The notes: a model not told the origin generated them from the sequence alone. Counted from the first letter of the stretch, positions 41,931 through 44,702 are shown. The stretch: DNA of 64,000 bases from Ideonella sp. MAG2 (GCA_004359425.1 PTEU01000002.1:462771-526770), one strand, 5' to 3'. Made by a program: numbers and translations.

Positions 41931-44069
41931 TCACCGAACCAAGTCGTCCAAAAACTCCGAGCATGGCTCCACGCTGGTCACCAGCAGTCGATCACGGGCT
42001 CGGGTGCAGGCCACGTACAGCAGGTGTCGCTCGGTGTTGTACACCTCGTCAAGGTCGGACTCGTCCATCACGCTTTCAATGCGTGACTGCAAGGGCAGCA
42101 CCTGGTCATCGCAGGCCATCACCGCCACCGCTCTGAACTCCAAGCCTTTGGCCAAATGCATGGTGCACAGTGAGGCCTCGCCGGGCGCGGTCTCCACGTA
42201 GTCGTCCAGCACTCGGTGGGGCAGGCCCGCCGCCTGCAGCGCGACGCGGGCGCGCTGCAACTGAGGGTCGTCGCGCACCACCACAGCCAGCTCATGCGGG
42301 GCAAAGCCCTGCTGCCGCAAGCCCACCAGCCAGTTGGCCACCGCCTGGATCTCTTCGGCCTCCGTGGCGTAGGCGGCCATCACCGGCGCTGGGCCATTGA
42401 ACACCGACACGGTGCCTTTGCGAGACTCGGTGTTGCCGTCCATGTCCGCCACCTCCGGCCCCAGCAGCCGGTCGGCCTGCTGGCGAATTTGGTGTGAGGT
42501 GCGGTAGTTGATGTGCAGCGTGCGCGACCGCCCGCGCAAGTCCACCCCCAGCGACTTCCACGAAAAAGGCTGCTGAAAAATTCGCTGCCCCAAGTCGCCC
42601 GCAAAGAACAGGCTATTGGGCCGCACTCTGCCTTCGCCGTTAGGCGCCACACCCGCCATGGCCGCGAGCATGCGCAATTGGCCCACACTCAAGTCTTGCG
42701 CCTCATCCACCACCACAAAGTCAAAGGGAGGGTTCTTCAATTGCACCAGCTTGGCCGCCAAGGTGGTGAACAGCCGAGCAGGCGTGGTCAAACCCTGCGC
42801 ATCCAGCCGCGCTTGCACCGCCTCAAACACCGCCCAGAGCGCTTGCCGTTGGGGCTCAGACAGCCGAGTCTTCCGACCCAAGCGCTTCACTTCGCGATAG
42901 TCCTCCCAGCTCTGCAACTGCCAGGCATCCACCACGTCCGCCCATTCACCCAGCACAAAGTTCGGGGTGAAACGCGCCAACAAAGCGCCGGGTTGCGCGG
43001 CGCGCTGTTCGGCCAAGGCAGCCTCCACGGCAGCCCGCTCGTCTTGCCGCGTGGCCAAACGTGGCTTGGGTTGGTTGCGGTCGCGCAGCCGGTCCATCAG
43101 GCGCAGGCCCATACTTTGCACGTCCACCACTTCCAGCCGCTCGGCCAGCCTAGGTTGGTGGCTGATCAGGCAGTTCATCTTGTTCCGCAAGGCATTGGCC
43201 AACGGCTCAGAAAAGGTCGTGAGCCACACCCGCGCCTCAGGGTGCAAGCGGGCCAGCGTCACCGCGCGGTGCAAGGCAACGATGGTCTTGCCTGTGCCTG
43301 CTGATCCAGACACCCGCGCCGGGCCACTGAAGTCCCGCTGCACCCATTGCTGCTGCGCAGGGTGCAAGAAGATGGACCACTTTTCCCAAGGGGCCGCCAA
43401 GGCCTGCTCCAACTCTTCGGCGCCACTCATCAAGCGGAAGCGGCGCTGAGCGTCTGGGTGGCTGAACGGGTCGGCGGGCTTGGCCGCGCCCAGGTTGGCA
43501 ACAGGCAATGGCTTGCCACCTGTGGCCATTTCCAACAAGGCCTCAGCCGCTTCGGCAGGCAAATGCTCAGCTAAAGCCAGCAGGCTGTCTTCGTCTGCCT
43601 GCTTCACATCGGCCAGCCAGTCGGCCGGCACACCAACGGCCAAGAGCGTCTCGTCCGCCAGCGTGGCAAACAGCAGGCGCTTGGGCGGCCGCGTGGTGCG
43701 CTCTTGCGCAACATCGCCAGCCACCCACTGCTCCACCACCCGCTCGCGAATCTCCACCCACTGCGCAGCACCTGTGCTGGGGTGCGTTTCCAAGCGGCGC
43801 CGCTCTGCCCATTGATAGGCCTTGTCGTGGTGGTCCACGTAGCACAACAAAAAGCTGCTCTCCGTTTTGTGGACGATCAAGCGCAGGTCACTGCCCACCC
43901 GCACCGACCAGAAGTGCTTGTCCTTGGACTTGTCGATGCGGTGGAAGCGATGACCAGGGTTAGCAGGGTTGACCTGCAGGTCAAACGCCGTGGTCTTGAC
44001 CAGCTTCTGCTCCTCAGCGGTCAGGCGTGAGAGGCTGTCGGTGAAGGTGTCGGAGATGCGGAATTGCAC
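41931..44069 (-). CDS. SF1 UvrD/Rep-like helicase with an N-terminal RelE/ParE-like domain
   Basis: 712 aa, GTG start 3 nt after the upstream stop. The N-terminal ~95 aa (FHRIDKSKDKHFWSVRVGSDLRLIVHKTESSFLLCYVDHHDKAYQWA) look RelE/ParE-like. Helicase motifs are GSAGTGKT, VVVDEAQD, FFAGDLGQRIF, NYRTSHQI, TMHLAKGLEF and YVACTRARDRL. Confidence 0.85.
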   Translation of the reverse strand: MQFRISDTFTDSLSRLTAEEQKLVKTTAFDLQVNPANPGHRFHRIDKSKDKHFWSVRVGSDLRLIVHKTESSFLLCYVDHHDKAYQWAERRRLETHPSTGAAQWVEIRERVVEQWVAGDVAQERTTRPPKRLLFATLADETLLAVGVPADWLADVKQADEDSLLALAEHLPAEAAEALLEMATGGKPLPVANLGAAKPADPFSHPDAQRRFRLMSGAEELEQALAAPWEKWSIFLHPAQQQWVQRDFSGPARVSGSAGTGKTIVALHRAVTLARLHPEARVWLTTFSEPLANALRNKMNCLISHQPRLAERLEVVDVQSMGLRLMDRLRDRNQPKPRLATRQDERAAVEAALAEQRAAQPGALLARFTPNFVLGEWADVVDAWQLQSWEDYREVKRLGRKTRLSEPQRQALWAVFEAVQARLDAQGLTTPARLFTTLAAKLVQLKNPPFDFVVVDEAQDLSVGQLRMLAAMAGVAPNGEGRVRPNSLFFAGDLGQRIFQQPFSWKSLGVDLRGRSRTLHINYRTSHQIRQQADRLLGPEVADMDGNTESRKGTVSVFNGPAPVMAAYATEAEEIQAVANWLVGLRQQGFAPHELAVVVRDDPQLQRARVALQAAGLPHRVLDDYVETAPGEASLCTMHLAKGLEFRAVAVMACDDQVLPLQSRIESVMDESDLDEVYNTERHLLYVACTRARDRLLVTSVEPCSEFLDDLVR

Positions 44070-44072
44070 GAT

Positions 44073-44702
44073 TCAGGTCAGCTTGAACTTATTGGCAGCG
44101 ATTGGCGTTATTTCCCACAACGGTCTTGCACCTGTTGCTTTCAATGGCTTCGTCCACCACTCACTATCGGAGGTATTGTTTTTCTTCGTTCCTTTAATTT
44201 TATTCATCAAAGGGAAGCATCTCTTCGATTGATCGCCGAATTTCAAATTAAACCATTCAAGCATCTGGTACTCCACATCCTTGTAGTAATCCCTCGTACC
44301 AGGGCGTGCAGGAACAGCAAAATCAAAATCAAAATCCGCACCCGAAAGACTTCTCATCAGATCGAATAATTTATTTTCAAAGTGACTGCTAATGCGCTGC
44401 CGAATGTCACCACGCCCAATGTACAGGACTTGAGAGCGCTTCTTTGGATATTTGATAGTAAGCGGATTGGAGAGCGATATAACATATACCCCCTTCTTCG
44501 CCAAATTCAGATCAAAGTGCTGATCTTTAAGTGCCCACTCAATCTCCCGCATCGCCTCCTTAATGGTCTTGCTCCGCAGCTCAGCCTGAACTGACTTTGA
44601 ATAATCCTCAAAAATACTGAGATCGAACCCTGCATTGCGCGCATAAACAGCCAAACTCTGCCGCCGAAGCCCATACCACCGATTTGTTTCAATCCTTGCC
44701 AT
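44073..44702 (-). CDS. GIY-YIG nuclease-like protein
   Basis: The ORF track starts at TTG 44717. ATG at 44702 is preceded by AAGGGGA. The motif is KKGVYVISL..(19 aa)..VLYIGRGDIRQRISSH. GC is roughly 40% within a ~62% operon. Confidence 0.6.
   Translation of the reverse strand: MARIETNRWYGLRRQSLAVYARNAGFDLSIFEDYSKSVQAELRSKTIKEAMREIEWALKDQHFDLNLAKKGVYVISLSNPLTIKYPKKRSQVLYIGRGDIRQRISSHFENKLFDLMRSLSGADFDFDFAVPARPGTRDYYKDVEYQMLEWFNLKFGDQSKRCFPLMNKIKGTKKNNTSDSEWWTKPLKATGARPLWEITPIAANKFKLT

Follow-up and report, generated by a model that had tools for sequence, protein, structure and literature searches.

Genes embedded in multigene defense systems are often defense systems themselves, as a survey of Hma, BREX, DISARM, and type I restriction-modification (R-M) operons has described (Payne et al., bioRxiv 10.1101/2024.01.29.577857). 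A single-effector precedent is the anticodon nuclease PrrC, which is nested in the type Ic EcoprrI R-M operon, cotranscribed with it, and acts as a guardian of R-M (PMC12707154). The locus considered here lies in a stretch of 64,000 nucleotides (nt) from Ideonella sp. MAG2 (GCA_004359425.1 PTEU01000002.1:462771-526770), called the window below; coordinates refer to the whole of it unless another locus is named. Its subject is a small open reading frame (ORF) resembling GIY-YIG nucleases, which abuts a gene for a superfamily 1 (SF1)/UvrD-type helicase. An earlier note on this DNA proposed that the two genes form a candidate stand-alone nuclease-helicase defense module. The finding is real but more ordinary than that: the nuclease is an accessory one lodged within a restriction operon, and the pair is no new two-gene system. 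More fully, and with a probability of roughly 0.6, the small gene is a rare, mobile accessory nuclease, one of many interchangeable inserts between the methyltransferase gene (mod) and the helicase gene of an R-M operon, and not the dedicated partner of the helicase.

How does this locus compare with the described systems? As with the embedded genes surveyed by Payne et al., an accessory gene lies within a conserved system, in a slot that is either empty or filled with diverse cassettes, including ABC-3C, Gabija, GmrSD-like genes, ABC ATPases, and NYN genes. The host is different, being a type III-like Res-Mod-helicase operon outside that survey, with no Hma components by PADLOC. The text and text-form supplementary files of the survey contain no GIY-YIG candidate. 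PrrC is similar in being a single effector nuclease gene within an R-M operon, a likeness of genomic nesting only; it consists of an ABC ATPase and an anticodon nuclease domain, both absent here, and the likely substrate of the protein described here is DNA, not tRNA. Gabija, whose logic the earlier note invoked together with that of Nhi and Hachiman, also places a nuclease gene beside a UvrD-family helicase, and the helicase of the window has partial matches to GajB. GajA, however, is an OLD-type ATPase-TOPRIM protein, whereas the 209-amino-acid (aa) protein has no ATPase or TOPRIM domain and no PADLOC match. Moreover, the helicase comes from a different, R-M-linked family with a tentatively RelE-like N-terminal domain, and a true Gabija pair occurs as a separate cassette in the corresponding slot of another locus (L002). 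Compared with type III R-M, the window Res likewise has a superfamily 2 (SF2) motor and an endonuclease domain, but the window Mod lacks motif I and the target recognition domain, and the genes run res-mod with a third gene after them.

Evidence for embedding comes from the gap between mod and the helicase gene. The order Res-X-Mod-Y-helicase, in which X and Y vary, recurs in loci L002, L003, L005, L009, L012, L015 to L019, and L026. The nearest backbones all lack the GIY-like gene and carry something else in its place. In L015 (identity to the window of 88% for the helicase, 95% for Res, and 97% for the Mod C terminus), the slot holds an ABC-3C cassette (CTD6, MC2, ATPase); in L016 (82%, 92.5%, and 96%, the Res value holding over the full length), an unknown 268-aa gene; and in L017 (78%, 90%, and 97%), an AriA/NsnB/PtuA-like ABC ATPase. 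At the DNA level, the window matches these three loci up to 44713-44718, at the Mod stop, and again from 44068-44074, at the helicase start; the cassette thus exactly fills the intergenic slot. A broader sample of 80 metagenomic loci (L030-L109) was retrieved through the conserved Mod C terminus, and in 54 of these a helicase gene lies downstream of mod. The slot is empty in 12 of the 54 (a TGATG overlap or a gap of at most 21 nt) and filled in the other 42 by 0.3 to 4.9 kb of DNA (8 slots of 0.3 to 1 kb, 13 of 1 to 2.5 kb, and 21 above 2.5 kb). The GIY-like gene is absent from all 80 loci.

What else occupies this position? Contents in other loci include ABC-3C (L015 and L002), Gabija (L002), GmrSD (L005), AriA/NsnB/PtuA-like ATPases (L017 and L002), HNH genes, JukA-like genes, and genes of no recognized kind, so that known defense systems sit in a variably occupied slot between conserved genes of another system, as is typical of embedded genes. 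In L002, the slot has expanded into a miniature defense island of 11.5 kb (6905-18436 of that locus), with an ABC ATPase, DUF429, a 5′ fragment of the helicase gene, the GIY-like gene, ABC-3C, and both genes of a complete Gabija system; in L005, the GIY-like gene shares the slot with one GmrSD and one JukA-like gene. The helicase fragment in L002 is a stand-alone ORF of 263 aa, 49% identical to residues 1 to 227 of the window helicase. Every slot occupant, and Mod itself where the slot is empty, abuts the helicase start tightly. The TGA-ATC-GTG junction reads in the sequence just as the earlier note had it, with 3 nt between the small ORF and the helicase, but since tight spacing is common to all occupants, the gap is not specific to the nuclease-helicase pair. 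The architecture of the operon, the cassette boundaries, and the variable occupancy of the slot are direct observations, as is the decoupling of the nuclease from the helicase described next. The Mod-helicase gap is an insertion hotspot, and the Res-Mod gap is a second one, holding NYN, Bro-N, ORF6N, FRG plus pP_pnuc_2, or unknown genes in other loci.

Where do homologues of the nuclease sit? Close homologues come from both sequenced genomes and metagenomes. Six carriers, L002, L003 (Ramlibacter sp. WS9), L005, L009 (Jiella marina), L012, and L026, have Res first, then one variable gene, Mod, the GIY-like gene, none to several further genes, and last the helicase. Mod is 937 to 1,014 aa long in these carriers where it is complete (that of L026 ends at a contig edge), and the GIY-like gene starts 11 to 25 nt past its stop codon. 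One to several genes separate the nuclease from the helicase in L002, L005, L009, and L012. Elsewhere the host is another system altogether. In L004 (Desulfuromonadales), the GIY-like gene comes directly after hsdS of a type I system, with a gene for the type IV restriction protein GmrSD behind it, and in L006 (Dehalococcoidia) it comes directly after Res of a classical type III system; no backbone-type helicase lies near either. In the decayed locus L001/L014, its neighbors are an NYN gene and a piece of the Mod C terminus (found by tblastn, Mod residues 498 to 582), with Res and the helicase gone. All close homologues with a readable context lie 11 to 25 nt downstream of an R-M gene, from three types of R-M system. 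L007 contains a degraded copy of the GIY-like gene. In L010 (1443-3505 of that locus), a further copy of the operon in decay, the GIY-like gene is intact, while the helicase downstream of it is broken into two ORFs (355 and 335 aa) and the C terminus of the upstream Mod is frameshifted. The order GIY-like gene, then GmrSD directly, is seen in both L004 (10001-12648) and L005 (10001-12573). The idea that the two travel as a two-gene cassette found no support, the GmrSD proteins being 22% identical and the GIY-like proteins 60%, in two cases only; the adjacency could be a coincidence at a hotspot or a functional pairing.

Distant relatives, at approximately 25 to 29% identity, behave differently. 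They are solitary genes at unrelated sites, some near insertion sequence (IS) elements, integrases, or resolvases: on a Burkholderia chromosome, in Rhodoblastus with hsdM fragments and on a second contig with a resolvase, in a prophage-like stretch, and on plasmids of Escherichia albertii and Pantoea. A tblastn search of plasmids returned only relatives at 27 to 29% identity, annotated "hypothetical protein," and one of 50,697 phage records returned no copy of the gene. The R-M-associated subfamily has a conserved N-terminal region of approximately 65 residues (W9, Q15-S16-L17-A18, R22, G25, D27-L28, and Y34). Most of the solitary relatives lack it, their matches starting at profile positions 45 to 65, and an intermediate subfamily retains it.

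What kind of protein does the small gene encode? Sequence comparison and a structural model make it quite likely to be a very divergent GIY-YIG-type nuclease. The family consists of 67 clusters among 5.8 billion proteins, all of approximately 210 aa and unannotated; a profile search found 183 representatives among 1.84 billion proteins. With distant relatives included there are 283 clusters, of which the 120 listed all lack both a Pfam domain and an informative name. A family of rare nucleases is now defined that has no name in any source and no above-threshold match in any library searched. The core of the protein, at approximately residues 66 to 170, is preceded by an N-terminal extension of 65 residues and followed by a conserved tail, both of them family specific. 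Across 38 sequences with 19 to 36% identity to the query, Y73, Y85, Y94, G96, G98, R103, E144, P164, and N167 are invariant, and H107 is conserved in at least 90%. These include the catalytic constellation of the GIY-YIG superfamily, Tyr...Tyr-Ile-Gly...Arg-x3-His...Glu...Asn, as Y73, Y94-I-G96, R103, H107, E144, and N167. With the full set in place, the protein is probably an active metal-dependent DNA nuclease.

The motif string from which the earlier note recognized the ORF is indeed present, with GVY (71-73) on a predicted strand (E71-77) and YIG (94-96) on another (E92-98). The two motifs are approximately 20 residues apart (21 from Y73 to Y94) instead of the canonical 10 to 11, with an extra hairpin strand predicted between them (E81-84); E144 and N167 are 23 residues apart instead of 12 to 15. 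Even so, hhalign pairs GVY, YIG, and the R and H residues in register with those of I-TevI and Escherichia coli UvrC; relative to I-TevI, this takes an insertion of 10 residues. The 38-sequence profile aligns with a three-sequence GIY-YIG alignment, entered by hand and not drawn from a database, at a probability of 65% (P = 5.9e-5), and Y73, Y94, R103, H107, and E144 pair with Y19, Y29, R39, Y43, and E76 of Thermotoga maritima UvrC, the numbering of that UvrC sequence agreeing with the mutant names in PDB titles. Below the Pfam thresholds, PF01541 scores 14.9 bits (cutoff, 22.6; E = 0.034), PF20815 appears in 7 of 24 members (best E, 0.026), and GIY-YIG families are the only ones that recur among such matches. 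The AlphaFold2 model is a single compact domain (predicted local distance difference test [pLDDT] score, 85; predicted TM-score [pTM], 0.84) with the topology beta-beta(-hairpin)-beta-alpha-beta-alpha, the GIY-YIG order plus one extra hairpin. When the domain-only model is compared with the PDB by Foldseek, the UvrC GIY-YIG domain accounts for the top four matches (probability, 0.54 to 0.84; target-normalized TM-score [TMt], 0.57; E, 0.24 to 0.78). For the full-length model, the UvrC GIY-YIG entries rank 23rd and lower (E of approximately 2), and nothing in the PDB or BFVD reaches an E value of 0.001 or less. Y-family polymerases head the full-length PDB list; this was judged not to be homology and probably reflects a long helix plus a sheet.

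Small nucleases of this superfamily are known in other roles. Eco29kI and Hpy188I are small GIY-YIG restriction enzymes, and the protein is like them in packing approximately 200 aa into one compact domain; neither enzyme appears among the fold matches. The Seg proteins of phage T4 are free-standing GIY-YIG homing endonucleases. The cassette shares with their genes a small size, a foreign composition, precise insertion between conserved genes, and presence/absence polymorphism. It differs in having no phage context and no detected separate DNA-binding domain (there was no helix-turn-helix or zinc-finger family match in the small protein), in using a site common to unrelated cassettes, and in having flanks that vary among Mod, hsdS, and Res.

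The base composition of the cassette is foreign to the operon. The earlier note put the GC content of the small ORF at roughly 40%, slightly low against the measured 44.9% (0.43 to 0.45 in 300-nt windows), but the contrast it drew with the operon is real: mod has 58.7%, the helicase gene 64.1%, and res 61.5%, and the four neighboring genes together span 59 to 64%. The contrast holds at synonymous sites as well, with a third-codon-position GC content (GC3) of 0.50 in the small ORF versus 0.72 to 0.82 in those four genes. In nearly every host, the GIY-like gene is AT shifted, on average by approximately 10 GC points below its flanks, and its GC3 is well under that of the backbone genes also in L009, L012, and L026; its GC content still correlates with that of the flanks (r = 0.74). 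Other slot genes too are somewhat AT shifted. This AT-rich codon usage may stem from a horizontal origin, or selection may have kept a toxic nuclease at low expression; the data do not separate the two. In its description of the locus, then, the earlier note is borne out: the ORFs, the junction, the GC contrast, and the helicase motifs are all there, with a compositionally foreign small ORF abutting a complete SF1/UvrD helicase.

To which partner, then, does the helicase belong? Its 712 aa carry every SF1/UvrD motif, as claimed (Walker A GSAGTGKT, DEAQD, GDLGQR, NYRTS, HLAKGLEF, and VACTRAR), and Pfam agrees (UvrD-helicase, 9.8e-15; UvrD_C, 2.3e-18). The RelE-like N-terminal domain of the earlier note corresponds to a region of approximately 230 aa that is RelE/HigB-like by weak matches only: a HigB-like toxin at E = 0.0048 (under the Pfam cutoff), a RelE-like PHROG at E = 0.056, and the JGI names of relatives. 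The best PADLOC match of the helicase is C3a187 (NERD plus UvrD; 2.1e-23), followed by partial matches to GajB (E, 4e-18 to 1e-17). Its family numbers at least 8,000 clusters at an E value of 1e-30 or less. Third in the conserved backbone after Res and Mod, the helicase belongs to the restriction operon rather than to the nuclease.

The rest of that operon is only partly familiar. Res is a BPTD_3080 family restriction endonuclease (NCBIfam NF046055; E = 0; 1,340.9 bits) with Pfam matches to ResIII (2.1e-9) and RE_endonuc (7.8e-4). PADLOC recognizes only the methylase of the operon: its REase_III models barely match the window Res and do not match the L017 Res at 1e-5. The backbone runs res first, then mod, with a conserved third gene, rather than as a two-gene mod-res pair. 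An identification as Hma (helicase-methylase-ATPase) was considered and rejected, as no backbone protein matches the PADLOC Hma models. No paper describing the Res-Mod-UvrD backbone was found, nor was literature on "BPTD_3080." In L017 to L019 (12160-19269), the operon stands beside genes for a relaxase, ParA/ParB, SSB, DUF932, and RadC, a conjugative-element context.

The window copy of this backbone is damaged. Its Mod (deletions within 44714-46543, minus strand) is 583 aa long instead of the 937 to 1,023 aa of relatives. Measured against L015, L016, L017, and L026, it lacks a central 319 residues comprising the target recognition region and S-adenosylmethionine-binding motif I (DPTCGSGTT in L016 and L026), as well as some 61 to 90 N-terminal residues. 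A deletion of approximately 196 nt took the stop codon of the neighboring NYN gene, the Mod start, and about 61 N-terminal Mod codons. Catalytic motif IV (DPPYG) is retained; the Pfam match covers only model positions 1 to 127 of 221, and the PADLOC model MTase_III PDLC03632 matches the window Mod over positions 84 to 454 in its best stretch and the L017 Mod end to end. A type III Res relies on Mod for DNA recognition. Because Mod is crippled, R-M function has probably been lost, and the R-M backbone of Ideonella sp. MAG2 is, on this sequence evidence, probably inactive. The cassette, Res, and helicase are intact ORFs despite this. The NYN gene, 72 to 74% identical in L016, encodes 310 aa instead of the 280 aa of relatives and has weak PADLOC matches to NYN and HEC-09 models; its last 30 or so residues (46477-46558) have no counterpart and appear to be read-through from the deletion that removed its stop. 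The operon is also a mosaic: relative to the nearest relatives, the N-terminal part of Mod is 63 to 65% identical, its C-terminal 211 residues 96 to 97%, and Res 90 to 95%, and mod contains a break in DNA homology (45357-45833, with the corresponding parts of L015 to L017), which suggests swapping of the specificity region.

Could the nuclease and helicase nevertheless be a dedicated two-gene defense module? The 3-nt coupling is kept in L026, the helicase has its partial PADLOC GajB matches (E of approximately 1e-17 to 1e-18), and of about 10 contexts of close homologues, 7 have the helicase downstream within one operon. Against this, the two families do not co-occur as a unit: at least 8,000 helicase clusters face 67 nuclease clusters. 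The nearest helicases (78 to 88% identical) adjoin other genes, 12 of 54 loci have an empty slot, and the nuclease is missing from all 80 loci screened. Where the nuclease is present, one to several genes intervene before the helicase in L002, L005, L009, and L012, and no backbone-type helicase accompanies it in L004, L006, and L001/L014. The coupling, as seen above, is a property of the slot. A module of the Gabija, Nhi, or Hachiman kind is therefore highly improbable, and it fails two of the refuting checks that the earlier note itself proposed: most helicase homologues lack the nuclease, and close nuclease homologues occur away from any backbone-type helicase. The other explanation raised in the earlier note, that a homing-endonuclease-type gene invaded the mod-helicase junction, comes close to the truth as regards invasion; the homing mechanism is unsupported. 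Such a selfish, free-standing endonuclease would cut the empty Mod-helicase junction, or a conserved sequence nearby, and be copied in by recombinational repair without benefit to the host. GIY-YIG is a classic homing endonuclease fold, and loci with and without the gene, empty junctions among the latter, differ at a single exact position whose flanks are highly conserved; the gene has foreign codon composition in every host examined and a degraded copy in L007, and its distant relatives (approximately 25% identity) are solitary at unrelated sites, some near IS elements, integrases, and resolvases. Between the window and L026, the proportion of synonymous differences (pS) is saturated in the cassette (0.83) and not in its flanks (0.41 and 0.55). 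This hints at allele exchange, a hint weakened by the stronger codon bias of the flanks, as weaker bias may account for part of the high value in the cassette. Homing-type coconversion was also considered as the cause of the conservation of the Mod C terminus and discarded, cassette-less relatives being equally conserved there (96 to 97%). The slot is used by many unrelated cassettes of 0.3 to 4.9 kb, complete defense systems among them, so the polymorphism needs no dedicated endonuclease. Close homologues follow three different genes (Mod, hsdS, and classical Res), the protein is one compact domain in which no separate DNA-binding module like those of I-TevI or the Seg proteins was detected, the 50,697 phage records contain no copy, and a frequency of 0 in 80 related loci is low for a driving element. 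Homing is thus an unlikely explanation.

A third possibility is that the nuclease depends on R-M. As an auxiliary or guardian enzyme, it would dock onto R-M complexes through its N-terminal extension, stay latent or be recruited, and fire upon inhibition or stalling of R-M, on the model of PrrC and EcoprrI, the precedent reviewed in PMC12707154. Docking would explain the constant position of close homologues 11 to 25 nt after an R-M gene of three types, and it fits the conservation of the 65-residue N-terminal region in the R-M-associated subfamily and the lack of that region in most solitary relatives. The gene, however, is intact where R-M has decayed, in the window with its damaged Mod and in L001/L014, which fits independent function at least as well, and it is demanding for one protein to dock onto three R-M enzymes that differ in structure. 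The guardian role is accordingly doubtful. Equally tentative is the broader idea that the 210-aa subfamily represents an unrecognized class of R-M-docking GIY-YIG nucleases that would bind type I, classical type III, and BPTD_3080/helicase-type complexes as a second cutter or guardian. In a stronger version, the Res-Mod-helicase operon itself would be an undescribed three-component defense platform with two cargo slots.

The preferred reading remains that of an embedded accessory nuclease. The cassette is probably cotranscribed with the operon, with a Shine-Dalgarno sequence of its own for translation, and its product, by association, would be an accessory defense or conflict effector that moves among several types of R-M operon, acting independently of the helicase or at most with the R-M machinery. 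Several observations weigh against this. Among carriers, nuclease divergence tracks backbone divergence (r = 0.75 to 0.82), and L026, the closest carrier, is collinear with the window (identities of 96% for the Mod C terminus, 75% for the cassette, and 86.5% for the helicase) and has the same TGA-NNN-GTG junction. The gene can thus stay with its operon and helicase for long periods, a backbone helicase lies within 0 to 8 kb downstream in the same operon in those 7 of about 10 contexts, and there is room for a functional nuclease-helicase link within the L026-window sublineage. The defense role of the nuclease is assigned by association, from its genomic position. The nuclease assignment, too, has points on the other side. 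The catalytic residues, the profile-profile alignment, and the fold ranking favor it, but no curated model in Pfam, NCBIfam, PADLOC, or PHROGs reaches threshold with the 209-aa protein. Hidden Markov model searches of PDB sequences with two family profiles gave only spurious matches (Gtr2 and flagellin), and a Pfam scan of 38 distant members found no recurrent family. The GIY-YIG reference alignment consists of three sequences entered by hand rather than taken from a database, and Foldseek E values of 0.24 or worse are not significant. As to the association with the backbone, operons without the cassette lie at equal or smaller backbone distances, which shows that the contents of the slot turn over more quickly.

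The five minus-strand ORFs of the window form one tightly packed operon in a small chromosomal island at approximately 41.9 to 50.6 kb (Table 1). The first possible start of the small ORF would give 44073-44717; ATG 44702 is the most likely start because homologues begin at the matching residue (MARIETN/MAKIQTN) and a Shine-Dalgarno sequence precedes it. No promoter-like or terminator-like site was found at the cassette boundaries.

Table 1. Features of the Res-Mod-helicase operon in the window
Feature	Coordinates	Strand	Remarks
Res (SF2 ResIII helicase plus C-terminal endonuclease)	47518-50580	-	1020 aa; first gene of the operon; apparently intact
NYN-domain protein, occupant of the Res-Mod slot	46477-47409	-	310 aa; Pfam NYN 1.2e-11
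Mod remnant (type III-like N6/N4 DNA methyltransferase)	44714-46465	-	583 aa
11-nt spacer, Mod stop (44714-44716) to cassette ATG	44703-44713	-	Holds AAGGGG ribosome-binding site; upstream cassette boundary
GIY-YIG-like nuclease gene, cassette in the Mod-helicase slot	44073-44702	-	209 aa
3-nt spacer ATC, cassette TGA to helicase GTG	44070-44072	-	Downstream cassette boundary
SF1/UvrD-type helicase, third backbone gene	41931-44069	-	712 aa; GTG start

The island is flanked by ordinary chromosomal genes (methionine synthase, alanine racemase, aminotransferase, and sugar kinase), and no integrase is in view around the operon, whose neighbors are housekeeping genes. Between the helicase gene and a thioesterase gene, a 217-aa ORF on the plus strand (41204-41857) is convergent with the helicase gene. 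It matches nothing in Pfam, NCBIfam, PADLOC, or PHROGs, lies in a stretch of lower GC content (0.51 to 0.57), and may be part of the same island. Farther away, on the minus strand at 30302-35018, the domains of methionine synthase are split over two ORFs about 0.9 kb apart, one of 351 aa (homocysteine S-methyltransferase) and one of 916 aa (pterin-binding, B12-binding, and activation domains).

What do these results mean? A plausible "new two-gene defense system" is not to be filed, the helicase going with the restriction operon. In its place stands a rare nuclease family whose catalytic residues are clear enough for the direct design of mutants. Beyond the single gene, the Res-Mod-helicase operon is widespread and has two precise cargo slots in which known defense systems gather. 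It extends guilt by embedding to type III-like systems and, because of what its slots collect, offers a cheap place to seek further defense genes.

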